Assembly (NCBI GenBank): GCA_023257815.1
Contig: JALRBJ010000002.1
Coordinates: 18,787 to 82,786 of the forward strand
Reading direction: 5' to 3'
Length of the DNA stretch: 64,000 nt
Source of the DNA: Candidatus Saccharimonadia bacterium
Lineage (GTDB): Bacteria > Patescibacteriota > Saccharimonadia > Saccharimonadales > Saccharimonadaceae
In this document: one piece after another, positions 5,300 through 58,083 of the stretch
Numbering within the stretch: position 1 is the first letter of the stretch
Layout of the letters: each line of letters starts with the position of its first letter
Made by a program: the position numbers and the translations under genes
Notes under the pieces: model-generated
Told to the model about the DNA's origin: nothing
Database searches by the model: none
Seen by the model: the letters and a program-made list of their open reading frames with translations, nothing else

Positions 5300-5752
5300 T
5301 TAAGCAAACTCATCAATCTGCGCATTGCGGCGCTTATACCTTGGAGCGTTAGCAAACGGTGTACTAAGCCATGTTTCGATAATACCCTTCCAAGCAGAGT
5401 CATCATTTTCTAAGATTCGAGCCGGTAAACATAGTACGTTACTATCATTATCATTACGAGTCATCTTTGCTTCGTAGGCATCCCATATGACTGCTGCACG
5501 AATACCACGGAATCTATTGGCCGCAATTGCCATCCCTTGACCACCACCGCAAATCAAAATTGCCCGTGGGTCTTCGCCTATATCGCCAATAACCTTTGTT
5601 GCAGCTAATTGAGCAAAATCAGGAAAATCATCCGCAGGGTCAAGTTCTTGATCCCCCACGTCTTCTACGTCGTAATCATGCTTCGCAAGGTAAGCAAACA
5701 CTTTTTCTTTCATGTGAAAGCCTTGATGATCTGCTCCAAGATATATCTTCAT
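5300..5752 (-). CDS. rpiB: Ribose-5-phosphate isomerase B
   Basis: 150-aa ORF. GADHQGF and CGGGQGMAIAANRFRGIRAA are typical RpiB/LacAB motifs. Confidence 0.9.
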   Translation of the reverse strand: MKIYLGADHQGFHMKEKVFAYLAKHDYDVEDVGDQELDPADDFPDFAQLAATKVIGDIGEDPRAILICGGGQGMAIAANRFRGIRAAVIWDAYEAKMTRNDNDSNVLCLPARILENDDSAWKGIIETWLSTPFANAPRYKRRNAQIDEFA

Positions 5753-36811: not shown

Positions 36812-36887
36812 GCGGGTTTAGCTCAGTTGTTAGAGCGCTTCCTTGCCATGGAAGAGGCCAGGAGTTAGAGTCTCCTAACCCGCACCA
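36812..36887 (+). tRNA. tRNA-Gly (anticodon GCC), CCA encoded
   Basis: Hand-folded: acceptor GCGGGTT/AACCCGC, D arm GCTC/GAGC, anticodon stem CTTCC/GGAAG with loop TTGCCAT, T arm AGGAG-TTAGAGT-CTCCT, ACCA end. Confidence 0.85.
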
Positions 36888-36928: not shown

Positions 36929-37546
36929 TTAGTCTAGCCGGTTGGCAAGCTCGTCTTCGATATCGCTTAGCGAATCTTTATAATCCATATAATCGTCCAA
37001 AAAATCAGCATATTTTGGCAAGCTACCGAATAATTCAACAACAGGTTCAGGATTGAGCCACTCAGGCGGACCTAAATAATATGAATGAATACTTGAGTAA
37101 GGATACGCTTTCCAGCCCTTAGGATTCAAATGAATATACCGACTAACATGCATAAGATATGACTCTGATGAAATTAGAGACGCCTTATACCGACTTTCAA
37201 ATAGCGCACCCGATGACTTATATTTCTTGTTGAAATACATGCTATAGCTGGTCATAATCCCCCGCATAAGCCGACTCATTGAACCTTCTGTTTTTTGATA
37301 GAGCAATAAGTGAAAATGGTTACCCATCTGGCAGTAGCAAAGCAAGTCAATGTCGCTGCGCAAATGCGCATATGGCTTACCGTATAGGTCGCTAGCTGGC
37401 TCGATAGATAAATGTCGTGCGAACAAATTGGTAAATGTCTCAAAATCTTCATCATCACGAAATATCTTCTTTCGTCCATGTCCACGGGCATAGACATGAT
37501 AATAGCTATTCGGAGCATCGATCTTTACAATATTTCGACTTGGCAT
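36929..37546 (-). CDS. REP-associated tyrosine transposase / IS200-like HUH (Y1) transposase family protein
   Basis: 205-aa ORF with YHVYARG...IFRDDEDF, HUH motif GNHFHLLLY, then FESRYKASLI and RYIHLNP. This is the typical COG1943/Y1_Tnp layout. Confidence 0.75.
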   Translation of the reverse strand: MPSRNIVKIDAPNSYYHVYARGHGRKKIFRDDEDFETFTNLFARHLSIEPASDLYGKPYAHLRSDIDLLCYCQMGNHFHLLLYQKTEGSMSRLMRGIMTSYSMYFNKKYKSSGALFESRYKASLISSESYLMHVSRYIHLNPKGWKAYPYSSIHSYYLGPPEWLNPEPVVELFGSLPKYADFLDDYMDYKDSLSDIEDELANRLD

Positions 37547-37574: not shown

Positions 37575-37599
37575 TAGAGGGTTCGTCCTTCTATTCCTT
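37575..37599 (+). repeat. 25-nt hairpin repeat, copy 1 (tagagggttcgtccttctattcctt)
   Basis: 24/25 identical to 39626-39650. Contains a short stem-loop AGARGG-TTCGT-CCTTCT. Lies 29 nt from the RAYT start codon. Confidence 0.7.
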
Positions 37600-39036: not shown

Positions 39037-39135
39037 TCTTTATTCAAAAATGAAAACAGACTCACTGAAAGGGCTACGGCGCTCGTAGAAAACGACGTAG
39101 CGTTACCCTACAGCAAGCCTGCTTTCAGTGAGCCT

Positions 39136-39432
39136 TTACACTCTTGAGAGGCTCTTCAACTCTTTCCGCACGACAGCACGGACTTGGTACTTGAACTCAT
39201 CGGCGATGAGGCGTTTGATGTTCTTTGCAAACCAGGCGATGAACTTGATGACACCATACACGATGAGGCAGGAAGTCATCAGAGAATCAGCGATTTGAAA
39301 GCATTTGCTCACCGAGTTCCACGAGAGAACCCACGAGACGATCCATAGCCAATCGTTGAGAATGTAAACGACCCCAAATGGCGAAGTGGCGAAATGCTCC
39401 CACTTCTCATACAGCTTTTTCAAGTTTTCCAT
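39136..39432 (-). CDS. Small membrane protein
   Basis: 98-aa ORF, Trp-rich, with two hydrophobic helices. GAGAGG SD, own promoter, and G+C above the local background. Confidence 0.45.
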   Translation of the reverse strand: MENLKKLYEKWEHFATSPFGVVYILNDWLWIVSWVLSWNSVSKCFQIADSLMTSCLIVYGVIKFIAWFAKNIKRLIADEFKYQVRAVVRKELKSLSRV

Positions 39433-39477
39433 TTTGAACCTCTCAGGAACGATAAGCCATCTTGACTTATTAGCTTG

Positions 39478-39506
39478 ATTATAGCATAAATTATATGGCT
39501 ATGCAA
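39478..39506 (-). promoter_or_regulatory. Sigma70-type promoter, TTGCAT-N17-TGcTATAAT (minus strand)
   Basis: The reverse complement of 39478-39506 has an extended -10. It lies ~45 nt upstream of the ATG at 39432. Confidence 0.5.
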
Positions 39507-39595
39507 GTACATCCCTTCCTTATCTGTGCAGGACGAGCAAACTTGTGTGCTAGGCGACATGGCTTAATTCGGACACCTTATTGGAAATAGAGAAA

Positions 39596-39613
39596 TAGAG
39601 GGGTTCATCCTTC
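39596..39613 (+). repeat. Degenerate copy of the hairpin repeat (tagaggggttcatccttc)
   Basis: Shares TAGAGG-GTTCRTCCTTC with copies 1 and 3. Confidence 0.5.
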
Positions 39614-39625
39614 AACTAGAAGAAT

Positions 39626-39650
39626 TAGAAGGTTCGTCCTTCTATTCCTT
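39626..39650 (+). repeat. 25-nt hairpin repeat, copy 3 (tagaaggttcgtccttctattcctt)
   Basis: 24/25 identical to 37575-37599. Followed by a second ttctattcc unit. Confidence 0.7.
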
Positions 39651-39879
39651 CTATTCCCTAACGCCCGCTTACGCAGGTTTGTATGCGGCTGCTTTTTTTG
39701 CGTAAGCACCACATCAAAAATGTGTAATAGGGCGTTCATTATTAAGGTCTAAGCTCTTTTATTGTATAGTAAATAGCCCTTTGCTGACACTCCGAAGCGG
39801 CAAAATTTAAAATGAATCGATAACACTTAATGCTTATGCTTTGAAGTCTTGGGAAATGGTTGTTTAATTATTAACAGAT

Positions 39880-42800
39880 ATGAAAGTGCCGAAGTTTAAT
39901 TTCATTCGTGACGAACCACTCGATAAAAATAGCGAGTCATTTTTCAATTTCTATCACTCAGCAATTGCACCTGCACTAGTTAAAATTCTCAAGTCAACCT
40001 CAGCCCCCCATACAATCGGCATCTTTGGGTCATGGGGTACTGGTAAAAGCACGATAATCAATATGTTGAAAAGTGATACAAGACTCAAAACACCCATCTT
40101 TATATTCGACGCATGGAAATATCAAGAGGACTCATTACGAAGGACATTCCTTATTAAGTTAGTAGATTTCCTCAAGAGTAATGAAGTTGGAATAGATTTT
40201 GACGACAATTTCTTGAGCGACATGTATCATGCAACAGAGCAGAGAGTAGACGTTCCAGTTGAGGACGGTAAAATCTCATCAAAAGTACGTTCTTGGATTA
40301 AGAAGAACATACTATTGTCCCTACTCGTCCTGCTAGTTATCGCTACGATAATCGTAATTCTCTTAGCACCTCAATACCCTGGTTTGAAAATGGTAGACGA
40401 TATACTCAAATATCTGTCTTCCATTACAATTGTGGCACTATTTGCCAGTACTTTTCTTGGAAGGGTCTTCGAACGAGTTGGCGACATATTGCTGCAAAAC
40501 TCAAAAACCACTAAAAATTCAATGATGAACATCACCTTCAAAGATAAATTGAATTCTCCTGAAGAATTTGAAGAAAAATTCAAAGACATTCTTCTTAAGT
40601 TGGGAAAAACAAAACTAATAGTTGTCTTCGACAATATAGACCGCGTTCAAGGTGATGTAGCTGTTTCAATGATTTCAACGATTAAAACATTTATGGAACC
40701 CAACAATAAATCACGGGTTGTCTTTATCATTCCATGCGACCCCGATGCAATAGATGAACAGATAGCCCAGTTCTACACAGGAGACAAGGACACAGCTGCG
40801 GGCTACCAATCCTCGGAATATCTGAGAAAAGTATTTAACTTAATAATTTGGCTGCCAGACTATATAAATACAGACCTTGAGGAGTACACTTCAAGGTGTC
40901 TCGAAGCAACTGGCGAAATAAGCTCGCTACTCAACACTGGTAATGTTGTTCTCGTAATCAATTCAGCATTCTCCAAGAACCCACGTGAGATTATTCAGTT
41001 TGTAAATAATCTAACCGCTCTAACAATTGCCGCACACAGTTCAGGAGTAGCAAGTCATATTGTCAATAACATTGCATACTTAGCCAAAACGCAGGTTATT
41101 AAACAAAAGTTTCCAACTGGCTATAAACGACTTCAAAATAGCTGGAATAATCCCGAAGCTATTTATCAAGCTGAACCCATTACTCCCGAAGAAATCGCAC
41201 TGAAAGAATTCATGCTGGCAACAAGTAGAATTACTGCCGAGGACGCTGAGCCATTTATTTATTTTAAAGACCCTCTAGGTGCTCGTGGCCTAAAAGATTC
41301 TAATAGTCTTTTGAACGCATTACTTGAAAGTAATCCCGAAGCTATAGCGGAGCAAGTGAAGATAGAGTCGAATAATGCAGCAGTTGCTAAGTTCACGCTC
41401 GATGTAATGAATAAATATAAAGGAATTCCAAAGGCGTTAGTTGCTATCTATAATGTTCAGTTCAAGAATATATACGACATCATACCTGAAGCATACAAGA
41501 GTAGGTATTTAGATAACTTAGCGAAACTCGTTGATACTCATTTGTGGAGTCGTTTTTCTGAACTCGATACAGATATGACATTTCGTCTAATAAGTGAGGC
41601 GAATCTTGATAAAGACTTAGCTCAAGCCCTGAAAACTCGATATTTAAACACACTGAAGCCACTTGATGAAAGTAAAAAGAATACTACCGAAATACTCAAG
41701 AAAATTGTTGCCAACATTAGAGATAGGAAGACTCTATTCAACACTCAAGAGATTTCTGACGTTAGAGAGAATATAGAGTCAAACTCAGCACTTGCAAATA
41801 ACGCACTAGACTTATTCACTAGTCAGGAATTGCAAGAACAGTTTATAGAGGAAAATCTGTTCTTAAGTTTTGTTCAGTCAATAGACTCAACTAATGTGAA
41901 TTCTCGCATGAAGCAGGTAGCGTCTTATGCTGAGTACATAAAGTCACATGGCCTTATGCCAGATGTATCAGATGCATTTTCTAAGAGTATCGAAAAGGAC
42001 TTTCAAAATAATCCTTCCCAAGCAAAGCACCTAGTACCATACACTTCAGCTCTGGGTACTCTAATAAAACTCGATAGAGAAGAGATTAAGAAAGACGGCT
42101 ACCAAGCACGGTTAACACTCATTCACAGCAGTCTTATGAACGCCCTTAGTGTTGCAGAGGACGAAAGTGTAACGGCAAACATACTTATTGGCTTATGGTG
42201 GCTACACGGGTCAACTCAAACACATGATGACACAATTGTTAATACAATTGCGACTCAAATGGCTTCATTGGGGATTGGCGGAATTCAGACATTCTTTAGC
42301 TATTGGGACAAGCCAACGAAAGAGAATATCGTTAGACATACTCAGCCAACCCTCCTGCAACGGGCTGTGGCAGATGCAAGTATTCTTGAATACATCTACG
42401 AGATTGCAGATATAGATAGCAAAAAAGCTATCGTTACTCACCTTATCAAAAATAAACCTCGTCCTGATGAGTCAACTATTGATTTTCTAAGTGCCAAAAC
42501 TGATGCTTCCAATATAGAAGAAGTAACGTCGGCTATTCGTGAATTGCAGCGAGCAAATGCATTCATAGATGAAGGGTACGTAAATCTCGCTTTACAGAAA
42601 CTTAGAAAAAATAGCTCTAGAGAGAGTAAGGATTCGATAATCCAGCTCATGCGAGAGTTTCTAAGACAAGAAGATTCTTCAAATATGGCTACTGGTCTGC
42701 GATTCATTAAAGAGGAGAAATTTCTATCATCTGAAGACAAAAAGGAACTCGCCGAAGAAGTTCTTGAGTATCTTGAATCAAGAAACGGCACAGTAAATGC

Positions 42801-43134
42801 TGAACAATTAGACCTTCTCAGCTTTATTACCACCCATTTAACAAGCACAAGCTACCATCGCAGGTTGTCACTTTTGGCATTAAGCTGGTTAAAACTTGCA
42901 TCGACAGCAGATATTGCTGAATCCATATTTAACTACCTAAATCAATTAAAGGTACGGTTTAAAGCCTATGAAACTGAAATCAGAGAAACATACCAGCACG
43001 TCTCCGTACAAGCAGAATCAGAAATAAAGAAGAAATCCATAGAATTACTACCTAGTCTTCGAACTCCGAGGCCAGCAAAGCCAGAGAAGGCATTTTGGGA
43101 AGAAGTTAATAACTATTACTCATCTGAGGATTAG
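39880..43134 (+). CDS. KAP-family P-loop NTPase (membrane-inserted), 1084 aa
   Basis: Walker A GSWGTGKST (aa 50-58). Two hydrophobic helices at about aa 143-163 and 180-197. Walker B-like LIVVFDNID (aa 246-254). About 800 aa of helical C-terminal region follow. TM helices inserted inside the NTPase domain are the KAP hallmark. Confidence 0.8.
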   Translation: MKVPKFNFIRDEPLDKNSESFFNFYHSAIAPALVKILKSTSAPHTIGIFGSWGTGKSTIINMLKSDTRLKTPIFIFDAWKYQEDSLRRTFLIKLVDFLKSNEVGIDFDDNFLSDMYHATEQRVDVPVEDGKISSKVRSWIKKNILLSLLVLLVIATIIVILLAPQYPGLKMVDDILKYLSSITIVALFASTFLGRVFERVGDILLQNSKTTKNSMMNITFKDKLNSPEEFEEKFKDILLKLGKTKLIVVFDNIDRVQGDVAVSMISTIKTFMEPNNKSRVVFIIPCDPDAIDEQIAQFYTGDKDTAAGYQSSEYLRKVFNLIIWLPDYINTDLEEYTSRCLEATGEISSLLNTGNVVLVINSAFSKNPREIIQFVNNLTALTIAAHSSGVASHIVNNIAYLAKTQVIKQKFPTGYKRLQNSWNNPEAIYQAEPITPEEIALKEFMLATSRITAEDAEPFIYFKDPLGARGLKDSNSLLNALLESNPEAIAEQVKIESNNAAVAKFTLDVMNKYKGIPKALVAIYNVQFKNIYDIIPEAYKSRYLDNLAKLVDTHLWSRFSELDTDMTFRLISEANLDKDLAQALKTRYLNTLKPLDESKKNTTEILKKIVANIRDRKTLFNTQEISDVRENIESNSALANNALDLFTSQELQEQFIEENLFLSFVQSIDSTNVNSRMKQVASYAEYIKSHGLMPDVSDAFSKSIEKDFQNNPSQAKHLVPYTSALGTLIKLDREEIKKDGYQARLTLIHSSLMNALSVAEDESVTANILIGLWWLHGSTQTHDDTIVNTIATQMASLGIGGIQTFFSYWDKPTKENIVRHTQPTLLQRAVADASILEYIYEIADIDSKKAIVTHLIKNKPRPDESTIDFLSAKTDASNIEEVTSAIRELQRANAFIDEGYVNLALQKLRKNSSRESKDSIIQLMREFLRQEDSSNMATGLRFIKEEKFLSSEDKKELAEEVLEYLESRNGTVNAEQLDLLSFITTHLTSTSYHRRLSLLALSWLKLASTADIAESIFNYLNQLKVRFKAYETEIRETYQHVSVQAESEIKKKSIELLPSLRTPRPAKPEKAFWEEVNNYYSSED

Positions 43135-43175
43135 TCTCGCAATATAAATGACAAAACGATTCAAAGGCGAACCCT

Positions 43176-43313
43176 TCAGTAAATAATCTTTGCAGGAAAC
43201 GGTCTGACCTTTGGTAGTTTGATGCTCATATCTCTTTCAGGCGTATCAGCTACCCATTCATAGAGTTTAAGCAGGTTCTGTAAATGTGCACCAATTTTAG
43301 ATATTTGCCAAAT
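43176..43313 (-). repeat. Degenerate repeat R1 / gene-remnant-like frame
   Basis: The minus-strand frame reads IWQISKIGAHLQNLLKLYEWVADTPERDMSIKLPKVRPFPAKIIY*. It has no usable start and is homologous to R2. Confidence 0.55.
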
Positions 43314-43347
43314 ACGTCGAACTGGCGTTTTTTGATATTATGAAAGT

Positions 43348-43737
43348 ATGAGTGATAAATCAGTATCTGAACAAATTGATGAGATTATTGCACAATATGA
43401 AGGTTGGCAAGAGAAGCTATTAAGGCAGCTACGGTCAATCATTAAGACCGCTGCTCCTGAGATTGTTGAAGAGGTTAAATGGAAAATGCCCAGTAATCCA
43501 AAAGGCTTGCCAGTTTTCTCTCACAATGGAATTGTGTGCATTATTCAAATATTTAAAAACGATATTAAGTTAGTATTTTTCAAAGGTGCGTATTTAGACG
43601 ACCCTAATAAGTTATTCAATGCTCGCCTAAACAGCGAAACGGACCGTGCTATAGAATTCCGTGAAGGCTATGAACTTAATGAGCAGGGCGTCAAAGATCT
43701 AGTTCTAAAAGCAGTAGCGTTCAATTCTAGTAAATAA
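43348..43737 (+). CDS. DUF1801 (YdhG-like) domain protein
   Basis: 129-aa ORF (EEVKWKMPSNPKGLPVFSHNGIVC...KLVFFKGAYL) typical of the YdhG/DUF1801 family. Confidence 0.65.
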   Translation: MSDKSVSEQIDEIIAQYEGWQEKLLRQLRSIIKTAAPEIVEEVKWKMPSNPKGLPVFSHNGIVCIIQIFKNDIKLVFFKGAYLDDPNKLFNARLNSETDRAIEFREGYELNEQGVKDLVLKAVAFNSSK

Positions 43738-43858
43738 TTTTCCCAAACTTTTTGACATTACCTATTTTTGGAAGTTTACATTCACCACCCCCAATCACCC
43801 GTTCAAAAAGTTTAAATAAATTCCGTAGCTCCGCACCAATTTAATTTATTTGTCAAAT
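43727..43858 (-). repeat. Degenerate repeat R2 (decayed copy of R1)
   Basis: The minus-strand frame reads I*QIN*IGAELRNLFKLFERVIGGGECKLPKIGNVKKFGKIIY*. It has two internal stops and overlaps the DUF1801 stop codon. Confidence 0.55.
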
Positions 43859-43935
43859 AAGCCATGAGCGTATTTTTCTTTATCCGACAATAAAAATATA
43901 TCGTTGTAGATCACTATCTAAATCCGAAACACCCA

Positions 43936-44397
43936 CTAACATGCTTTTATTAGCTCAAGATGCTTTTTTCGTTCTTTTTTTACTTCTTCTATATCATCTG
44001 GGTGCATTTTATTCACAAGAGTTACGGCAAAGTCAGTTGCCCATAGCCCATGGTATTTTACATGTGGTCCCGCTGTTAGCTGCCCCATTGTTTTAAAAAA
44101 CCTCGCTTTGATTGGGTCTTCTTCGTCTCGACCGTATTGTGATATAGCAAAGCTGAGATTTCTTGCTTCGTGGTAGTTAGCTTCTCCATTAAGCCAGCGT
44201 TGCATTGCTTCAAAAGCAGCGATTATATCCTTATTTGCCTCAAAGCCTGTCATCTCTATGAGGTGCTTCCCCAGTGCGATGCAAAACTCTACGACTTGTT
44301 GATGACTCTTCGTATCATAGATAGCTATAAAATCATTTCTAAGCTCAGGAACGTCGTCAATTTTGCCAACTGGTCTTTGATAGTCGTATATATTCAT
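43936..44397 (-). CDS. Hypothetical helical protein (possibly immunity-protein-like)
   Basis: 153-aa all-helical ORF. Only a vague resemblance to Imm5-type immunity repeats, so no firm assignment. Confidence 0.5.
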   Translation of the reverse strand: MNIYDYQRPVGKIDDVPELRNDFIAIYDTKSHQQVVEFCIALGKHLIEMTGFEANKDIIAAFEAMQRWLNGEANYHEARNLSFAISQYGRDEEDPIKARFFKTMGQLTAGPHVKYHGLWATDFAVTLVNKMHPDDIEEVKKERKKHLELIKAC

Positions 44398-47401: not shown

Positions 47402-47721
47402 CATAAGATTTTATAGTAAGGTTAAATGAAATAGCTTACTCTCTTGCATTACTATCTACGCTTAGAGACTGCGTTCTTACACATAAACTTTTAGAAAACA
47501 CTATATAATATCATTAAGCCCAAGCGGGCTATAGCCTAAAGCCACTCAGATGAGAAGGTATGGTTAAAAATCTATCAGGAAGTAAAAGCTCGTCGTCAGA
47601 GCACTATTTCCTGATAGTCACATCCGAAAGGATGTGGGTGGCCTAAAAACCATCACTGGCGGCGGGCTTTTAGTTTTGCCGCCAGGAATACTAACTCAAA
47701 GGATCGACAGGAGGATTCTTT

Positions 47722-48108
47722 ATGAATACAAAACAAGCAAAGCCATGGTACAAGAAATGGTGGGTGTGGCTAATTATCATCCTCATACTGATTGGAATTG
47801 GAGGTGCAGCAGGTGGGAATAATGGCGCAAACTCAAGCAGCACATCAGAGATGAAAAGTAATGAAACCGCTCAGCCAGCCAAGCCAAAGTGGGATGTTGA
47901 AGATGCCTACTCCAAAGTAAACGATGGCATGACCAAGGCCGAGGTTGAAGCTGCTGTTGGTAAAACTTCAGATAATTGTAGCGAGAGTAGTATGCAATAC
48001 GTTGGTAAAACCGAGATTTGTACGTACGGCAGCCTAGGCGACAACGGATCAATTACTGTAACCTATCAAAATGACAAGGTGGCATCTAAAGCTAAAACAA
48101 AGTTCTAA
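47722..48108 (+). CDS. Membrane-anchored small secreted protein (DUF3862/BLIP-like C-terminus)
   Basis: 128-aa ORF with a CAGGAGG SD and a TM anchor (WWVWLIIILILIGIGG). The C-terminal part GMTKAEVEAAVG...ITVTYQNDKV is typical of DUF3862-like domains. Confidence 0.5.
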   Translation: MNTKQAKPWYKKWWVWLIIILILIGIGGAAGGNNGANSSSTSEMKSNETAQPAKPKWDVEDAYSKVNDGMTKAEVEAAVGKTSDNCSESSMQYVGKTEICTYGSLGDNGSITVTYQNDKVASKAKTKF

Positions 48109-48981: not shown

Positions 48982-49959
48982 CTAAACAGCTTTAAGAATT
49001 TCTACCGCACTCTTTTCTTGGAGGGAAAGTGCTTTGAGTTTCTGTGATGCCTGGAGCACATAGGTACGCTCACCTGTTTGTGCAACTTTTTCAAATAGTG
49101 CTATTACTTCAGACCAGCTCTTAGCAACATCAATAAACGCTGCGTATGCCTCCCCGATAACTTTGTTGGCCGTTAGTTCATAGGCTTCTTTCAAGAAGTC
49201 TCGGTACAAATTCCTAAACAGCGCACCGCCCGTTCCGGCTCGTTCCATGATCATCGCCGAAGTAGCAAACTCCGTCTGTATATCTTTTGAGCGGTCAAAC
49301 CATTTAATAATTTCTTCACTCGCTTTTTCAATACCGCTTGGACCAAGATTTTTGATTGGTGGGTTGAGATAAACTTTGACGTTTGAACGGATTGCAGCAA
49401 CCGCTGCGTCTTTTAGTGGCGTAGTTTTTCCATCTTTTTCAAGGATGTAGTAAAGATTCCTGGAAGACATTGGTCCTTTTTCGTTGCGCGCCAACTCTAG
49501 GCTCCTTAGCGATGTACTAACTTCAGACCCTTGCTGATTCGTGTCAACTAAAAATGCGTTGTGATCATCGTAGCCCAACATAGCCACATAATGACCAGCA
49601 AAGTGAATTGGATTTGAAAAGTACTCAAGATGATAGCAGTCGAGCTTTAGCCCGACTGCCCTTTCGTCATCAAGTAGTTCTTTTACGCCTTGCCAAGCTT
49701 TAGCAATTGATGAAGTCTCTTTAACTGTTAATCTCAACCTCAAGTTCTTGGCAATGTTTGCAGTTAGTTGATCAGGCTTTACACGGCCACCAATAAATGG
49801 AAAATCCATCGTTTTCATATTCCATACAATAAAGCTCAGACCTTCACCAAGCCCAAATAGCATCGGCTCACTTAATTCAACGTCAATTTGGTTAAGTAAT
49901 GTACCAGTAGCCGTGCTTTCGCAGTGCTGCCCGACATATGGTTTTACGCTTACTTTCAT
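48982..49959 (-). CDS. BtrH_N / DUF4872-type (papain-like fold) protein
   Basis: 325-aa ORF. The N-terminus (HCESTATGTLL...PMLFGLGEGLSF) and the later HYVAMLGYDD recall the BtrH N-terminal domain family. Overlaps padR by 4 nt. Confidence 0.45.
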   Translation of the reverse strand: MKVSVKPYVGQHCESTATGTLLNQIDVELSEPMLFGLGEGLSFIVWNMKTMDFPFIGGRVKPDQLTANIAKNLRLRLTVKETSSIAKAWQGVKELLDDERAVGLKLDCYHLEYFSNPIHFAGHYVAMLGYDDHNAFLVDTNQQGSEVSTSLRSLELARNEKGPMSSRNLYYILEKDGKTTPLKDAAVAAIRSNVKVYLNPPIKNLGPSGIEKASEEIIKWFDRSKDIQTEFATSAMIMERAGTGGALFRNLYRDFLKEAYELTANKVIGEAYAAFIDVAKSWSEVIALFEKVAQTGERTYVLQASQKLKALSLQEKSAVEILKAV

Positions 49960-50474
49960 ACTGTCATCCTTTCTAGCTCTTCATTAATCCAGTGCAACTC
50001 TGATTTAAGAAGCGTTTCACTCAAGCTAAATAATTGCTGTGCTGATCGTGGTACATTTTTTGCCAATGATTGTGCAGCTTGCAAGGCATCAAGATCTGAA
50101 GAAAGTTGCGTTTTGCGCTGCCGTAAGGCGTCTTCAAGATCCGCAGATTCAACAAGATCACTTGAGGCAAGACCTGTCATAATATGCATATTAGCCGGAT
50201 TACGATTTGCGATAAGTTTTTTTGTTTCGTCTTTCAAGACGGCGCTACCCTTGGGCGTAATAGAGAATTGTTTCTTTTCTTTTCCTTGACTCGCGCTACT
50301 CTTAACAAGCTGCTTGCTTTCAAGCTTATCAAGAATGTAGTAAATAGACGAAAAGCCTATATCAGCCCATTTTCGCATGCCTCTTTCGGTAATAACTTTT
50401 TCGATATCATAACCATGATGAGGCTGTTCTGCTAGAATTCCCAGAATAAGATGTTCAGATAATGATAGACTCAT
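49956..50474 (-). CDS. PadR-family transcriptional regulator
   Basis: LILGILAEQPHHGYDIEKVI...SSIYYILDKLESKQLV is the canonical PadR winged-helix sequence. Confidence 0.85.
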   Translation of the reverse strand: MSLSLSEHLILGILAEQPHHGYDIEKVITERGMRKWADIGFSSIYYILDKLESKQLVKSSASQGKEKKQFSITPKGSAVLKDETKKLIANRNPANMHIMTGLASSDLVESADLEDALRQRKTQLSSDLDALQAAQSLAKNVPRSAQQLFSLSETLLKSELHWINEELERMTV

Positions 50475-50557: not shown

Positions 50558-51664
50558 CTATAGATTTACAAGATGTTCACGTGAGCGAGTTGCCGTCTCA
50601 AGTGCCTCATCAAAAGTTGCAGCAAGCGTGGTTACATGACCAATTTTACGCGCAATACGTGGAGTTTTACCGTATAGATGAAGCTTTGTATCTTTTTCTG
50701 CAGCAATTTTATCAATGCCAGTTCGATCTAGCAGCCCTTCACGAGTACCAAGTACATTTACCATTACGGCAACTGGCGCAACCTGTTCCGTGCTACCAAG
50801 CGGCAACCCTGTAACTGCACGAACATGCTGCTCGAACTGAGAAGTTTTATTTGCTTCTATCGTAAGATGCCCTGAATTATGTACACGTGGTGCGATTTCG
50901 TTGACAATAACCTCACCATTTACTAGAAACATTTCGATCGCGAACACACCAGCGCCATTAAGGTGTTTCAGTACTTCCCTTGCGAGATCCTCTGCTTTTT
51001 TATGAACAGAACTATCAACTTCAGCGGGTGAGATAACTGTGTGGCAAATATTATCTTCATGCACAGTTTCAACAACCGTATATGTTACAACATTGCCCCG
51101 TACATCACGGGCTGCAACAACTGCCAGCTCTTTTTCAAACTCTAGCTTTTGCTGAACATACATTTCAGCGTCTTGAAACTTCTCGGCAATTCGTGGATCA
51201 TCAAGCCTATCAACAACCAGATTACCCCTCCCGTCGAAGCCACCCTTTCGACTCTTAACAACGTAAGGGCCTTCGCCTAATGAGGCACTGGCCTCAAGAT
51301 CTTCGCTGAACGGTGCTACCGGAATACCAAGACTCTGTAAATAACAACTTTGTGTAAGTTTATCTTGAATGATCATTAAAGTTGCAGGATCAGCCTGAAT
51401 GTCATGACCCGCCTCTTGTAGTTCGACTAGTAAGTCGGCTGGAATGTGTTCGATCTCCCACGTTGTAACATCGCTCTCATTTACCAAGCACTCAATTGCG
51501 GCTTCATCTTTAATTCCACCTTCGATTACCTCTGCACCAACTTGACCAGCAGGACAATCTTTTGAATTCTCAACTACTTTTACTTGGAATCCTAGCTCTT
51601 TTGCAGGTGGTACTATCATACGTCCAAGTTGGCCACCTCCTATAATCCCAATTCTTTCAATCAT
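50558..51664 (-). CDS. purK: N5-carboxyaminoimidazole ribonucleotide synthase
   Basis: 368-aa ATP-grasp protein with an IGIIGGGQLGRM N-terminus. Confidence 0.85.
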   Translation of the reverse strand: MIERIGIIGGGQLGRMIVPPAKELGFQVKVVENSKDCPAGQVGAEVIEGGIKDEAAIECLVNESDVTTWEIEHIPADLLVELQEAGHDIQADPATLMIIQDKLTQSCYLQSLGIPVAPFSEDLEASASLGEGPYVVKSRKGGFDGRGNLVVDRLDDPRIAEKFQDAEMYVQQKLEFEKELAVVAARDVRGNVVTYTVVETVHEDNICHTVISPAEVDSSVHKKAEDLAREVLKHLNGAGVFAIEMFLVNGEVIVNEIAPRVHNSGHLTIEANKTSQFEQHVRAVTGLPLGSTEQVAPVAVMVNVLGTREGLLDRTGIDKIAAEKDTKLHLYGKTPRIARKIGHVTTLAATFDEALETATRSREHLVNL

Positions 51665-52485
51665 TACTGGCCACCCCTATTAAACTGTCCCGTAGCGGCC
51701 GCAACCCATGCATATTTATCGGCAACGTAATCAAGCGACTGTCCATCACGGTATAACTGTTTATCGACCATCTGATCCGGATCCCCACCTGGCCAAATTC
51801 GCCATGAATCATTGTCAATAACATCGGCTACGACTATTTCACCCTCTTCTGTAATACCACATTCAATCTTCATATCCACCAGCGTTACATCTTGGTCTTT
51901 CCAGGCTGCTTCAAGTATTCCAAAAGTACTGATCGCAAGTTCTCTTACACGCTGTTGTTGTGCTGGAGCCAAGCCAAATTTTGACTCATCTACTTCATCA
52001 ACATCAAGCATCGTGTCAGGACCAATCGGAGCATCAGCACGATATTGAAACACTTTATCCCCCACTATCTCTAGTAGTGGGTCATGGTTAGCATCATCTT
52101 TCGCAAACATCTCAAACTCAATGTCATCAAAAGTAGACCTGGGCTCTCTGCCTGGATTACGCTTCAAGTATGAACCGAAAGCAACCCGCCTTGTTACTAA
52201 TTCAATTGGTATCATCTCAACAGCCAGAGCACGAAAGGTTCGATCGTCAAAACGACCCACAAAATGCGTTGGAATACCTGCACGCTGCAGTAGCTCAAAT
52301 ACATTTGCCGTTGTCTCGGTGGCAAATTCCGCTTTCCCTGCAATGAGATCTCTTCTTGCGCCATCACCAGCTGTAATATCATCTTTACTTTCAACAAGTA
52401 CCTGGCCTGGCATACTTGATGGCCAGATTCGCTTTGTCTTGCCTTCAGCTAGTGGTAAGTCTGGTATATCAATTCCCTGTTTCAT
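51664..52485 (-). CDS. purC: Phosphoribosylaminoimidazole-succinocarboxamide synthase
   Basis: 273-aa ORF with EGKTKRIW, MIPIELVTRR and LVDMKIECG motifs of SAICAR synthase. Confidence 0.85.
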   Translation of the reverse strand: MKQGIDIPDLPLAEGKTKRIWPSSMPGQVLVESKDDITAGDGARRDLIAGKAEFATETTANVFELLQRAGIPTHFVGRFDDRTFRALAVEMIPIELVTRRVAFGSYLKRNPGREPRSTFDDIEFEMFAKDDANHDPLLEIVGDKVFQYRADAPIGPDTMLDVDEVDESKFGLAPAQQQRVRELAISTFGILEAAWKDQDVTLVDMKIECGITEEGEIVVADVIDNDSWRIWPGGDPDQMVDKQLYRDGQSLDYVADKYAWVAAATGQFNRGGQ

Positions 52486-52628
52486 AGTCTCCCTCGCTTA
52501 TGATCCAATAAATAGAGCTTACTTCCATGCTTACTTCATTACAAGCATAAACTTTTACCAAATTCCTTGTGCTTGTTTGAGCGGTAAAAGTAAGTAATAA
52601 TAACGCTAACTAATAGGAGGTGCAGAAT

Positions 52629-53180
52629 ATGACAAGAATTGGCGGCGAACTACCTAAAGATCATCTACTTGTTGGAGTAACGATGGGTTCCGACTCGGAT
52701 CTTAAGATCATGCGACACGTTGGTAGTACACTCGACGAGTTTGGTGTTCCTTACGAAGAACGCATAATTTCAGCACATCGCACTCCAGAAGCAATGATGA
52801 AATATGGACGCGAAGCGGCACGTCGCGGCCTACAGGTGCTTGTTGCAGGTGCTGGCGGCTCTGCACACTTACCAGGTATGCTTGCATCTGAAACGAGGCT
52901 TCCAGTTTTAGGTGTTGCAATCGAATCCTCACCTGATCCTACAAATGCAGCGCTCGGTTCAATGATTCGCATGCCTAAAGGTGCTCCTCTTGCTACTATG
53001 GGTAAAAATGAGGCCGCAGCCGCAAATGCAGGTCTTGAAGCAGTGCGTATTTTAGCACTATCTGATCCAGAGCTAGCCGAGCAGTATGAAGAATGGATGC
53101 GACGCCAAGCACGAGAAGTGGAAGAAAAAGACCTCCGGCTTCAAAGTGAAGGTGCAGCCGCATACTTAAGCAACACCTAA
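52629..53180 (+). CDS. purE: N5-carboxyaminoimidazole ribonucleotide mutase
   Basis: MGSDSDL, SAHRTPE and AGGSAHLPGM motifs. ATG at 52629 is preceded by TAGGAGG. Confidence 0.9.
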   Translation: MTRIGGELPKDHLLVGVTMGSDSDLKIMRHVGSTLDEFGVPYEERIISAHRTPEAMMKYGREAARRGLQVLVAGAGGSAHLPGMLASETRLPVLGVAIESSPDPTNAALGSMIRMPKGAPLATMGKNEAAAANAGLEAVRILALSDPELAEQYEEWMRRQAREVEEKDLRLQSEGAAAYLSNT

Positions 53181-54418: not shown

Positions 54419-55831
54419 ATGTGGTCTGCGAAAAAAATAACTAATAAAGTAGTGATTACTATGAGCCTAGCGGTACTGGCTATAGCTGGCGCCACTTTAC
54501 ATAACTCACCAGTAAGCGCAGCTACGCCGCCAGATAATTGCTTTGATTTCAGCTCAGGAACTATCAATAATTACTATGACAACGAAGACAATAACAATGC
54601 TAATCCTGCTTGTCCAAGAAGTGTTGATATTCCAAGTACGATAGCTGGAACGCCCGTTACCACAATAGGTACTCTTGCGTTTGGCAATAGGCAACTTACG
54701 GCAGTCACTATTCCAAACACAGTGACAGACATAGATGATTTTGCCTTTCGTAATAACCAACTTACATCCATTGTTATTCCTAATTCGGTAACAAATATGA
54801 AGACTTATGCATTTGCGGATAATTTACTTACAAGTGTCACTATTCCAAATTCATTAACAGTCCTTAATCTATCGGTTTTTGAGAATAATGAGCTTACAAG
54901 TGTTAGCATTCCAAACTCCATAACAGATGTTGGCTACCAGGCTTTCAATAATAATAAGCTGACTTCACTCGTTTTGCCAGATTCAGTGACACATATTGGA
55001 GATCTTGCTTTTTCTCGTAATCAACTCACGTCGTTGACACTTAGCGATTATGTCGACACTATTGAGTCTTATGCTTTCGCATATAATCAACTGACTTCTC
55101 TTGATCTTGGCAATAATATCAGCACTATTGGATCGGGTGCTTTCGCGTACAATCAGCTTACAGATGTAATAATTCCTACGAGCGTCTCGACAATCGGAGC
55201 AAATCCTTTTCTTGCTCAAGGAGCCGATGCTGCGGAACTTTCCGTTGGTAACTACAGCTCACTCATGGACATTTACTACACTCGCCTCTATACGGCTGAC
55301 CCTTCTAATCCGGCCAACCTCCAGGATGCTCAACAGTTGTATCCAGAAAGTGGACTTGGTATTGATGTAAACAATGACGGAGATCAACTTGATGACATCT
55401 CTGTTGGAGGTCACATTGTTAACCCAGCACAAGCGACCGTGTCTTATAGAAACACAACAGGAGCCACACTTGCACCAACAGAAACGATAACTGGTACTGG
55501 TCTCAGTAATTATATGGCGAACGACAATGACACAAACAATCTATCTCGTTATTTCCGCCTCGAACAGTCTCGATCATTTACTGCGCCGACCATTGCAGGA
55601 TATAGTATCGTGACACCTTCGAGCCCATACAGCACTACTCTGACAAGCACCAACACTGCTATTAACTTTGTTTACTCAAACCCGTCAAATGATAACGTCC
55701 CGCAAGCACCAGCCACAGGAGTAAGTCGATCATCACTTCTATCAATCAGTGATTTCATAGTCTTTGCTCTTGTAGCCATAGGTTTAATAATTCTCGTCGG
55801 TAATGGTGGTTTTGCTAAAAGAACAAGATAG
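54419..55831 (+). CDS. BspA-type leucine-rich-repeat surface protein with C-terminal sorting signal
   Basis: Signal peptide, then about 8 repeats of ~23 aa (IPNSVTxIxxxAFxxNQLTSV). The C-terminus has APATG, a hydrophobic helix and KRTR. Confidence 0.75.
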   Translation: MWSAKKITNKVVITMSLAVLAIAGATLHNSPVSAATPPDNCFDFSSGTINNYYDNEDNNNANPACPRSVDIPSTIAGTPVTTIGTLAFGNRQLTAVTIPNTVTDIDDFAFRNNQLTSIVIPNSVTNMKTYAFADNLLTSVTIPNSLTVLNLSVFENNELTSVSIPNSITDVGYQAFNNNKLTSLVLPDSVTHIGDLAFSRNQLTSLTLSDYVDTIESYAFAYNQLTSLDLGNNISTIGSGAFAYNQLTDVIIPTSVSTIGANPFLAQGADAAELSVGNYSSLMDIYYTRLYTADPSNPANLQDAQQLYPESGLGIDVNNDGDQLDDISVGGHIVNPAQATVSYRNTTGATLAPTETITGTGLSNYMANDNDTNNLSRYFRLEQSRSFTAPTIAGYSIVTPSSPYSTTLTSTNTAINFVYSNPSNDNVPQAPATGVSRSSLLSISDFIVFALVAIGLIILVGNGGFAKRTR

Positions 55832-56772: not shown

Positions 56773-57942
56773 ATGGCGGGAATGATAAAGATAAAATCAG
56801 TACATAAGCTAGTCTGTTTGTTGATTTTTCCTTTGTTTTTTGCTCTGTTTTCTGCTCATAATGCAATTGCTGCTCCTGGTGATATCACGGAATTTGACCT
56901 TCCAGCGGCCGGATCTCAACCATTTGGCATTACGACTGGACCAGATGGCAATCTGTGGTTTACAGAGAGTGGTGGAAATAAAGTTGGTAAGATTACAACG
57001 GGTGGAGTGATAACTGAGTTTGATGTACCAACACCAAGCTCTACACCAGGGGGTATCGCTAGGGGTTCTGATGGCAATCTGTGGTTTGTCGAAAGAACTG
57101 CAGATAAAATCGGACGAATCACAACAGCTGGCGTTGTGAGTGAGTTTGATGTACCAACACCTTCAGCACAGCTTGCCGATATTACCGCAGGACCTGATGG
57201 TAATTTATGGTTTACTGCACCAGGTACTAACAAGATCGGGAAGATTACAACGGGTGGAGTGATAACTGAGTTTGATGTACCAACACCAAGCTCAGCTCCT
57301 GCTTTTATTACTCTTGGTTCTGATGGTAATTTATGGTTTACAGAACAACTAGCGAGTAAGATCGGGAAGATTACGCCTAGTGGAGTAATCACGGAATACG
57401 ATATACCGACAACAGGCAGTATTCCTGGGGGTATCACGGCAGGACCTGATGGTAATCTGTGGTTTACAGAACAGCTTACTAACAAAATCGGCAATATTAC
57501 AACGAGTGGAGTCGTGACTGAATTTGATTTGCCAACAGCTAATTCCTTTGCAAGCGCCATTACTGTTGGTGCGGATGGAAACCTGTGGTTTACTGCACTT
57601 GGTATAAATAAAATCGGGCGAATCACCATAGCTGGCGTTGTGACTGAATTTGATGTACCAACACCAAATGCATACCCTGCTTTTATCACCTCAGGCCCCG
57701 ATGGTAATATCTGGTTCGCAGAAAGTAATGGAAATAAAATCGGGCGTCTTGAAATAGCTTCCGTCGCTCCACCAGTCACTCCTTCAAATCCAGGAGCATC
57801 AACGGTACCAAGCGCACCTTCAACTGGTTACTCGCGAAGTTCGTCAGCCAGCTGGAGCCTTGCTTTGCTACTCATCGGAAGTGCAACTATCTTGTTGATT
57901 GTCAACCTGTATCAAATTCGAAAAGCCTCACGCACGAACTAA
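56773..57942 (+). CDS. Vgb (streptogramin-lyase)-like beta-propeller repeat surface protein with C-terminal sorting signal
   Basis: Signal peptide, then seven ~42-aa repeats (GPDGNLWFTExxxNKIGKITTxGVxTEFxVPT). The C-terminus has APSTG, a hydrophobic helix and RKASRTN. Confidence 0.7.
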   Translation: MAGMIKIKSVHKLVCLLIFPLFFALFSAHNAIAAPGDITEFDLPAAGSQPFGITTGPDGNLWFTESGGNKVGKITTGGVITEFDVPTPSSTPGGIARGSDGNLWFVERTADKIGRITTAGVVSEFDVPTPSAQLADITAGPDGNLWFTAPGTNKIGKITTGGVITEFDVPTPSSAPAFITLGSDGNLWFTEQLASKIGKITPSGVITEYDIPTTGSIPGGITAGPDGNLWFTEQLTNKIGNITTSGVVTEFDLPTANSFASAITVGADGNLWFTALGINKIGRITIAGVVTEFDVPTPNAYPAFITSGPDGNIWFAESNGNKIGRLEIASVAPPVTPSNPGASTVPSAPSTGYSRSSSASWSLALLLIGSATILLIVNLYQIRKASRTN

Positions 57943-58007: not shown

Positions 58008-58083
58008 TGGTGGCTCCTACTGGACTTGAACCAGTGACACAAGGCTCTTCAGGCCTCTGCTCTACCAGCTGAGCTAAAGAGCC
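58008..58083 (-). tRNA. tRNA-Phe (anticodon GAA), CCA encoded
   Basis: Hand-folded: acceptor GGCTCTT/AGGAGCC, D arm GCTC/GAGC, anticodon stem GAGGC/GCCTT with loop CTGAAGA, T arm ACTGG-TTCAAGT-CCAGT, ACCA end. Confidence 0.85.

Follow-up and report, generated by a model that had tools for sequence, protein, structure and literature searches.

The KAP family of P-loop NTPases was reportedly described by Aravind, Iyer, Leipe and Koonin in 2004 (Genome Biol 5:R30). The gene discussed here codes for a member of this family, in which a KAP NTPase with a predicted membrane hairpin is followed by a long helical solenoid. It belongs to a Patescibacteria (candidate phyla radiation, CPR) genome, a group with genomes of about 1 Mb. 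The genome is Saccharibacteria-like: its MurF and LeuRS are closest, among named relatives, to those of Candidatus Saccharibacteria and Patescibacteria. The source is Candidatus Saccharimonadia bacterium (assembly GCA_023257815.1, contig JALRBJ010000002.1, positions 18,787 to 82,786), and the whole stretch of 64,000 nucleotides (nt) that was analyzed is called the window below. In the list of open reading frames (ORFs) with their translations, the gene is a complete ORF at 39880..43134 on the + strand, with an ATG start, 1084 amino acids (aa) and a stop codon. The identical protein is recovered in at least five independent assemblies.

PifA of the F plasmid is a KAP-family NTPase. As far as it is summarized in PMC13001434 (citing Schmitt 1991 and Cheng 2004), PifA is a single-gene T7 exclusion factor at the membrane, triggered by gp1.2/gp10, and membrane leakage upon T7 infection is cited there as well. 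PifA is reported to be without transmembrane helices (PMC13001434). More recently, EF_KAP and three metagenomic stand-alone KAP proteins with uncharacterized C-termini were found to give up to 6-log protection against phages (PMC13552941, PLoS Biol 2026). Both Walker B and the C-terminal region are necessary for this protection, and EF_KAP is reported not to act by abortive infection (PMC13552941). Tmn belongs to another family, YobI, and has two transmembrane helices inside its P-loop domain and ARM/HEAT solenoid arms (PMC13001434). It forms a decamer, senses RIIB of phage T2, burns ATP and exports Mg2+, which leads to plasmolysis (PMC13001434). Kaur et al. 2020 (PMC7159879) contains no discussion of KAP, and the paper on diversity-generating retroelements (DGR) mentions KAP in passing only.

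Set beside these systems, the window protein is, on balance, probably a single-protein anti-phage or anti-mobile-element immunity factor of the class in which a KAP P-loop NTPase is fused to a variable C-terminal region. Defense is the most likely explanation because the relatives of this protein adjoin restriction-modification (RM) and mobile-element genes. By analogy, the loci of 12 of 16 relatives and the 2026 paper on stand-alone KAP proteins support this role indirectly.

Judged by its sequence, the window protein is a bona fide KAP-family member in the three defining features tested: the profile, the Walker motifs and the inserted transmembrane helices. Pfam KAP_NTPase (PF07693) matches aa 28–380 (E=5.4e-30, 105.1 bits against a cut-off of 20, profile positions 3–288 of 293). 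The same PF07693 is carried by every homologue listed by the word-indexed search. With the KAP family the protein shares Walker A, the FDAWKY..D..RR strand-2 motif, the hhhhDNxDR Walker B, transmembrane helices between Walker A and Walker B, a variable alpha-helical C-terminal extension and a sporadic phyletic distribution. It differs from the family at large in its fixed ~1085-aa architecture, in a ~600-aa solenoid unique to the subfamily, and in the concentration in Patescibacteria.

The N-terminal module corresponds to aa 1–470 (39880..41289, +), as delimited by Pfam, alignment and AlphaFold2 (AF2). An alignment of 54 full-length homologues with 27–83% identity has 56 invariant columns, 54 of which are within this module. 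The conserved motifs are F8..D11-x-P13, the P-loop, FDAWKY..D..RR, Walker B with D251-N252-x-D254-R255, and P285-x-D287, and they are accompanied by a helical lid around the KAP P-loop NTPase core. On this alignment, aa 1–470 appear to be the conserved "engine" of the family. Walker A corresponds to aa 47–58 (GIFGSWGTGKST; 40018..40053, +), with GSWGTGKST at aa 50–58, and G47, W52, G53, G55, K56 and S57 are invariant. Walker B, LIVVFDNIDR, is at aa 246–255 (40615..40644, +). Its residues V249, D251, N252, D254 and R255 are invariant in the alignment, and a motif search was positive in 52 of the 54 members.

Between the two Walker motifs, two transmembrane helices are predicted from a pair of hydrophobic 19-mers. 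Helix 1 is at aa 144–164 (ILLSLLVLLVIATIIVILLAP; 40309..40371, +) by hydropathy scan, and the AF2 helix covers aa 144–162. Helix 2 is at aa 175–197 (ILKYLSSITIVALFASTFLGRVF; 40402..40470, +), likewise by hydropathy scan and AF2. The predicted helices would form a hairpin with a connecting loop of ~10 residues. The full-length AF2 model shows helices at 168–181 and 184–209 over the second helix, and the model of the N-terminal part a single one at 167–206; the AF2 confidence (pLDDT) is low across much of this helix. By sequence, no part of the protein is less conserved than the insert between the two Walker motifs. A hydrophobic segment is present there in all 54 aligned members, and two separate segments are seen in 42 of them. 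The stretch preceding helix 1 has a family mean net charge of +3.1. The retained hydrophobic segment and this basic stretch fit a predicted in-out-in hairpin with a cytoplasmic N-side, which would keep the ATPase in the cytoplasm. The order and positions of these elements are those of an earlier, sequence-only reading of the locus, which had assigned the protein to the KAP family by the transmembrane helices inside its P-loop domain; translation, hydropathy, the PF07693 score and the position of the hairpin all bear it out.

The AF2 model of aa 1–470 has a pLDDT of 79. Its closest solved folds are the ORC4/5-Cdc6 AAA+ subunits and RdrA, the ring-forming ATPase of RADAR (TMq 0.35–0.44; 0.41–0.44 for RdrA), and BrxC is also listed. 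The resemblance of the model to ring-forming AAA+ ATPases suggests that aa 1–470 may be an oligomerizing ASCE-type ATPase. STAND/Avs proteins are architectural analogues, sharing the logic of an oligomerizing NTPase with a repeat-type sensor. RdrA, ORC/Cdc6 and Avs/STAND show no detectable sequence similarity to the window protein and are without a transmembrane insert. Besides, RdrA has the deaminase RdrB as its partner, and the N-terminal enzymatic effectors of Avs proteins are absent in the window protein.

The remaining part, aa 471–1084 (41290..43131, +), is a HEAT/ARM-like alpha-solenoid according to AF2, Foldseek and the alignment. AF2 run on the family alignment gives a mean pLDDT of 82.7, with residues ~330–1080 confidently all-helical; the low-confidence parts are the linkers flanking the hairpin. 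The solenoid itself is all-helical at a pLDDT of ~85–94. When the full model was compared with PDB by Foldseek, only HEAT/ARM solenoids were matched (SF3B1, CAND1, CRM1, importin-beta and transportin), at E~1e-5 and with low TM-scores. Neither PDB nor BFVD yielded an effector or enzyme fold when searched by Foldseek with the full-length model, and the only match besides solenoids was one giant-virus KAP protein. When the family alignment was searched as a profile against PDB sequences, no match was significant; the top ones were YheS and CAND1 at E~0.008. Because Foldseek matches only HEAT/ARM proteins, the model indicates that the C-terminus is a generic alpha-solenoid without an enzymatic fold. 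This agrees with the first description of the C-terminal part as helical and free of an effector motif, since the model is all-alpha at a pLDDT of ~90 over ~700 aa.

A query with aa 471–1084 retrieved 48 representatives among 1.84 billion proteins. In all of them the matching region is aa ~470–1090 of a protein of ~1080–1110 aa, or else the protein is a fragment. As the 48 representatives share one position, the solenoid is family-specific and not shuffled onto other domains.

The two parts of the protein evolve at different rates. The solenoid is 16–30% identical to those of relatives, versus 50–70% for the NTPase. Compared with the relative of 83% identity, the solenoid has a dN of 0.129 and the NTPase core one of 0.032, so that the solenoid evolves ~3–4 times faster at nonsynonymous sites. 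This fast-evolving solenoid is the putative sensor arm. In the same comparison dN/dS is <0.1 throughout and dS is saturated (1.3 to >3). By this comparison, the gene is functional and under purifying selection. The strong selection once proposed for this gene holds in the sense of purifying selection, no more than ordinary. Positive selection in the solenoid was considered through dN/dS and dropped: because dS is saturated, only purifying selection with a faster C-terminus can be claimed.

Membership of QatA, PifA, Tmn and PDC-S20 was rejected on scores and on missing partner genes. QatA is the top defense match in both PADLOC and NCBIfam and shares the KAP-type P-loop. Its scores are 70.2 bits in NCBIfam, against an equivalog cut-off of 600, and 61 bits in PADLOC, with the best stretch at aa ~18–93 (aa 24–83 in NCBIfam). 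Neither the window nor the 25 commonest neighbor families of 16 relatives' loci include qatB, qatC (QueC-like) or qatD (TatD). For PifA, PADLOC PDLC02361 gives 37.4 bits over the whole protein, and the best stretch is aa 9–103 against positions 6–105 of 720. The window protein has a predicted transmembrane hairpin and another C-terminus, unlike PifA, which is plasmid-borne in an enterobacterial host. The term PifA-like, which the sequence-only reading had used, is right at the level of the KAP domain and does not extend to orthology, given the 37-bit match and the reported lack of transmembrane helices in PifA. The abortive infection that the same reading had put forward likewise says more than the data do; as a KAP-family membrane NTPase in an accessory island and a candidate defense gene, the gene was largely read correctly. 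As for Tmn/YobI, neither PF20693 nor PADLOC Tmn matches the window protein at E<=1; in a precomputed table, a few distant family members carry a secondary PF20693 match.

The stand-alone KAP proteins of PMC13552941 are likewise encoded by single genes, and they combine a KAP NTPase, which has a membrane helix within it, with a C-terminus without known function. They often adjoin serine recombinases, as do three relatives of the window protein (L006, L007 and L013); at the window locus itself there is neither a serine recombinase nor a defense gene nearby. EF_KAP, compared by description, differs in having one N-terminal and one in-domain transmembrane helix, a C-terminal region of 322 aa, and Firmicutes as hosts. 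Tmn has almost the same architecture in outline: a single gene, an N-terminal P-loop ATPase with two inserted transmembrane helices, and a long ARM/HEAT-like solenoid. Tmn is a single-gene defense in which the solenoid arms set specificity. It is of a different NTPase family, and the decamer, the RIIB trigger and the Mg2+ export are shown for Tmn alone. By analogy, this architecture supports the wording "works like" Tmn, not membership.

According to the word-indexed search, there are 207 relatives, of which >100 are full-length at 1066–1122 aa. Those with a named source are nearly all from Patescibacteria, namely Saccharimonadales, Parcubacteria, Paceibacterota, Microgenomates and Niyogibacteria. 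A scan of GTDB species genomes extended the full-length membership to Bacteroidota, Gammaproteobacteria (27% identity) and Atribacterota (24%); in many other phyla and in archaea, the match is confined to the N-terminal ~420–530 aa. The searches thus describe a rare family of fixed length (~1080–1110 aa), centered on Patescibacteria with scattered members elsewhere.

This distribution bears on an alternative without defense. The protein could be a membrane-tethered NTPase scaffold that regulates a complex of the epibiotic lifestyle, e.g., pili, secretion or attachment/uptake machinery. A generic role of this kind was the first to be proposed for KAP NTPases, and it is seen in Kidins220/ARMS. 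It would suit a family centered on Patescibacteria, and HEAT/ARM solenoids are generic protein-protein scaffolds. The small size of the family (~200 clusters at 90% identity, 48 representatives by C-terminus) and the sporadic members in the three other phyla speak against it.

Two sister genomes (L092 and L093, MurF 75–77% identical) are collinear with the window on both sides of a variable interval. One flank is KhpA-S16-RNase III-NUDIX-NusB-LeuRS-MurF and the other Band_7-Ddl-MgsA-trehalase-Zip-BipA. The left boundary is tRNA-Gly(GCC) at 36812..36887 (+), found by ARAGORN and Rfam, 2993 nt upstream of the KAP-solenoid gene. The right boundary is tRNA-Phe(GAA) at 58008..58083 (−), found by tRNA search and sister-locus comparison. 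The interval between them is 21.1 kb in the window (36888–58007), versus 2.6 kb in L092 and 1.1 kb in L093. The KAP gene is absent from this homologous tRNA-Gly/tRNA-Phe locus in both sister genomes. The interval appears to be a hot spot of gene gain; in its window copy, neither an integrase nor an att repeat was found. A further locus, L094 (MurF 83% identical), ends at the MurF gene and is hence uninformative on the island.

The closest relative, L011 (83% aa identity), shares DNA similarity with the window only at 39825–43289, which corresponds to the gene with ~55 and ~155 nt of flank. The context in L011 is unrelated to that in the window, with DUF4396, a CsoR-like repressor and DUF305 upstream and an ATP-grasp gene downstream. 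The KAP gene is therefore accessory and mobile, and not a syntenic core gene: it is absent in the sister loci and has no synteny even at 83% identity. The patchy distribution and the absence from the homologous locus of the sister genomes argue against the scaffold role. On the points that the sequence-only reading had left to be checked, there are a KAP profile match and hydrophobic helices between Walker A and Walker B, and the stand-alone gene lies in a variable, tRNA-bounded accessory region, in agreement with the tRNA-adjacent island that had been suggested.

The neighborhoods of relatives were surveyed in 16 loci with full-length members, within 6 kb on either side (141 ORFs). The commonest neighbor families are MmeI_Mtase, Eco57I, ResIII, N6_Mtase, GmrSD_N and Resolvase, followed by EcoRI_methylase, Methylase_S, HSDR_N, PLDc_2, HNH and SNF2. 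PADLOC on these loci reports components of type I, II and IIG RM and DISARM-like ones, in agreement with the family census. RM genes are within 6 kb in eight of the 16 loci. In five of these, the KAP gene directly follows an RM gene of the same strand, at a distance of 4–40 nt: HsdM-HsdS at 4 nt in L009, HsdM-S-R at ~20 nt in L016, a type IIG enzyme at ~5 nt in L019, and an EcoRI-like adenine methylase with a GmrSD_N-HNH nuclease in L012 and L014. L007 has an MmeI-type RM gene and a serine recombinase directly upstream. L015 has SNF2/DUF4391 upstream and a methylase with a Res-endonuclease downstream, and L021 has an MmeI-like methylase and SNF2.

Such arrangements could be explained by an RM-linked guard, which would watch over the RM complex, or sense when phage anti-restriction proteins inhibit it, and then launch a second line of response, comparable to PrrC within the EcoprrI locus. 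The window copy would then be an orphan or paired with RM encoded elsewhere in the genome. The close same-strand spacing in the five loci is what this explanation expects, and so is the position of the KAP gene of L015 between the SNF2/DUF4391 pair and the methylase and Res-endonuclease pair. The three-gene block of L012 (1276–6589) and L014 (103–5688), with the KAP gene as its third gene, is moreover kept across Paceibacterota and Saccharibacteria. Within this block, however, the KAP proteins are 66% identical, far better conserved than the neighbors at 45% and 35%. A single specific physical partner is also contradicted by the variety of the RM genes, which fall into four or more unrelated types (I, IIG, II + IV-like, III-like). 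No RM gene is nearby in half of the loci, the window among them, and defense genes generally cluster without functional coupling. We regard the guard as unlikely.

Four other loci contain integrase, recombinase or conjugation genes, so that RM or mobile-element neighbors are seen together in 12 of the 16. L010 has an rve integrase directly upstream and a zeta toxin, L013 a large serine recombinase, and L045 TraG/VirB4 and a type IV secretion system (T4SS) pilin. L006 has two tyrosine integrases, a resolvase and a 47-nt 3' fragment of tRNA-Gly(GCC), 96% identical to the tRNA of the window. This fragment (5518–5564) is ~130 nt after a tyrosine-integrase gene and ~4.4 kb from the KAP-solenoid gene, which is 43% identical; ARAGORN calls no tRNA at 5518–5564. 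The fragment resembles what an integrative element with the same tRNA as its target would leave of its att site. tRNA genes are also found 85–240 nt downstream of the KAP gene in L007 and L009, and ~1.8 kb upstream of it in L010.

These loci raise the possibility that the gene is cargo serving a mobile element itself, by the exclusion of competing elements or by post-segregational stabilization. The tyrosine integrases, serine recombinases, rve integrase, zeta toxin and conjugation genes beside L006, L007, L010, L013 and L045 would fit this, as would the tRNA-Gly fragment beside the integrase in L006, and PifA itself is plasmid cargo (PMC13552941). The window copy is without an integrase, with only a RAYT 2.3 kb away, and the DNA similarity to the closest relative is confined to the gene and does not extend to an element. 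In tblastn searches, 72,556 plasmids matched only the N-terminal ~450 aa ("P-loop NTPase fold" genes), and there was no match to the window protein in 50,697 phage records; members of the family are thus missing from both beyond matches to the N-terminal domain. Cargo is operationally hard to separate from defense. It is quite improbable as the explanation of the window gene.

The same loci complete the evidence on the scaffold. L045 adjoins TraG/VirB4 and T4SS-pilin genes, L008 is near a pilin-like gene, and the neighbors of the KAP gene in the window are not defense genes, all of which would suit a regulator of pili or secretion. No partner gene is conserved across the loci, which would not. 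With its patchy, non-syntenic distribution, we think it improbable that the protein is such a scaffold.

The immunity reading has its own difficulties, and the following points weigh against it. PADLOC finds no RM or other recognized defense gene in the 64-kb window, where the KAP gene is surrounded by small hydrolases, DUFs and purine-synthesis genes. Four of the 16 relatives' loci (L008, L011, L018 and L031) have no recognizable defense or mobile-element neighbors. The enrichment of RM neighbors (8 of 16 observed, versus ~5% of genes expected within 6 kb if there are a few RM systems per ~1-Mb genome) would be strong, and it is a rough estimate from an assumed background, because methyltransferases are common in CPR genomes. 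The defense models of PADLOC and NCBIfam (QatA, PifA, PDC-S20) match mainly the P-loop, far under the full-length cut-off. The 3' end of the tRNA-Gly has no att-type duplicate in the window at <=3 mismatches in 27 nt, and the edges of the island consequently depend on the comparison with the sister genomes alone. Base composition was dropped as evidence of transfer: the GC content of the KAP gene is 0.386 versus 0.430 for the window, a deviation judged weak because the GC content at third codon positions (GC3) is unremarkable. Finally, the presumed phage target is hypothetical, since almost no phages of Patescibacteria are known.

If the protein is an immunity factor, its action may be pictured as follows. 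The hairpin between Walker A and Walker B would tether a cytoplasmic, ORC/Cdc6- or RdrA-like oligomerizing ATPase to the inner face of the membrane. The ~600-residue HEAT/ARM-like solenoid would be the fast-evolving sensor arm that binds a protein of the invader. The binding could trigger the ATP-dependent assembly or turnover of an ATPase ring. The membrane-embedded hairpins and/or the consumption of ATP could then disturb the membrane or the ion homeostasis, so that the infection stalls. Precedents for such an effector step would be the membrane leakage associated with PifA and the Mg2+ export with plasmolysis of Tmn.

It can be speculated further that the protein is a Patescibacteria-centered, Tmn-like immune sensor on a KAP engine, with a membrane ATPase ring whose solenoid arms lead to the collapse of ions, membrane or ATP. 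In this more specific form the idea is rather doubtful. Equally tentative is the suggestion that the arms of such a sensor would respond to a conserved protein of phages or of conjugation, or to a neighboring RM system being inhibited.

Around the gene itself, the downstream spacer is 213 nt (43135–43347). The upstream spacer is 447 nt (39433–39879) when an uncalled 98-aa ORF at 39136–39432 (−) is counted as a gene, and 843 nt otherwise; the flanks of 447 and 213 nt that had been given are thus right for the second and hold for the first with this ORF. No GGAGG-like Shine-Dalgarno sequence is seen within the 20 nt preceding the ATG. A promoter-like CTGACA-18-TAAAAT is found by consensus scan at 39784..39813 (+), 67 nt 5' of the start codon, with 10 of 12 matches. 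The number of promoter-like consensus sites in the region is not above chance, and this site is a consensus match alone. Between the KAP gene and the next gene, a terminator-like hairpin (43314–43328) with a T-run lies at 43314..43338 (+), also as a consensus scan match alone. The two sites are consistent with a monocistronic KAP unit, and the gene, with spacers of its own, agrees with its initial description as monocistronic and without a Shine-Dalgarno sequence. The 98-aa ORF is divergent from the KAP gene and has two hydrophobic stretches. It has no Pfam match and is uncalled in the public gene calls of identical contigs. Just past its stop codon is a 14-nt inverted repeat (39058–39071 / 39122–39135).

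The neighboring RAYT-type transposase, identified by a Y1_Tnp domain match, has 205 aa and lies at 36929–37546 (−), ~2.3 kb from the KAP gene; with the tRNA-Gly, it had been placed ~3 kb away, and both are found there. A repetitive extragenic palindrome (REP)-like sequence, TAGARGGTTCGTCCTTCTA, is present in exactly two copies in the 64 kb (37575–37593 and 39626–39644), versus 0.05 expected. The first copy is 29 nt from the RAYT gene. The second copy (39626..39644, + by repeat scan) is in the upstream spacer of the KAP gene, inside a larger imperfect palindrome (about 39590–39662). The two copies bracket the His_Phos_1/HAD gene pair. On the other side, a direct repeat of 63 nt (43252–43314 / 43797–43859, 75% identical) flanks a DUF1801 gene (43348–43737). 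Its first copy is partly inside the DNA common to L011, which ends at 43289. This repeat could be a cassette boundary or a duplicated terminator region. The repeat elements claimed for the flanks are real in the REP-like hairpin and the 63-nt repeat, and they are modest. The flanking spacers were rejected as dispersed repeats, as the 19–25-nt REP-like hairpin alone recurs, once.

Other genes of the island are His_Phos_1, two HAD hydrolases, two DUF1801, an Imm5-like gene, DUF1428, a BLIP-like gene, PadR with BtrH_N, purK-purC-purE, a BspA-leucine-rich repeat (LRR) protein and a Vgb-lyase-like protein. The pur genes are at 50558–53180: purK (368 aa, −), purC/SAICAR synthase (273 aa, −) and purE/AIR carboxylase (186 aa, +). 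To our knowledge, Saccharibacteria are usually without de novo purine synthesis. This partial cluster in the variable interval may be an acquired metabolic patch. Some small genes of the interval (43936–44397 −, 47722–48108 +, 48982–50474 −) have a flavor of conflict, namely an Imm5-like immunity protein, a weak BLIP-like lipoprotein, and a PadR regulator with a BtrH_N/DUF4872 (peptidase-like) protein. None of them is a recognized phage-defense gene. The Rfam LOOT RNA (RF03000) is found at 47533–47654 (+) with 66.7 bits against a gathering score of 46.4, in a gap of ~700 nt between a 436-aa unknown ORF and the BLIP-like gene. The right end of the interval holds a BspA-type LRR and MucBP surface protein (470 aa, 54419–55831, +) and a beta-propeller protein of the virginiamycin-B-lyase family (389 aa, 56773–57942, +). 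They may be cargo related to the surface or host interaction and to antibiotics. Downstream of the HAD_2 gene, L003 has DUF1844 where L001 and L002 have DUF1428; the KAP protein of L003 is identical to that of L001 and L002, and the samples are different. By this difference, the island is micro-heterogeneous within one population.

The family described here is an uncharacterized, CPR-centered subfamily inside a class whose defense role was shown in 2026. The find is incremental, because the protein is already annotated as "KAP family P-loop NTPase" and defense by stand-alone KAP proteins is known since that year. Patescibacteria have very few defense systems, and almost no phages of them are known (PMC12366544). 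A single-gene immunity protein of 3.3 kb that moves between CPR lineages, and occasionally other phyla, with RM modules would enlarge this small repertoire. The layout, an ATPase split by a membrane hairpin and joined to a long solenoid, parallels the recently solved Tmn on another NTPase scaffold, and so offers a comparative case for how recognition is converted to an antiviral state. If the Tmn-like reading is true, membrane-inserted P-loop ATPases with solenoid sensors have evolved at least twice, in YobI and in KAP, and the family would give a first mechanistic handle on the antiviral immunity of ultra-small epibiotic bacteria.

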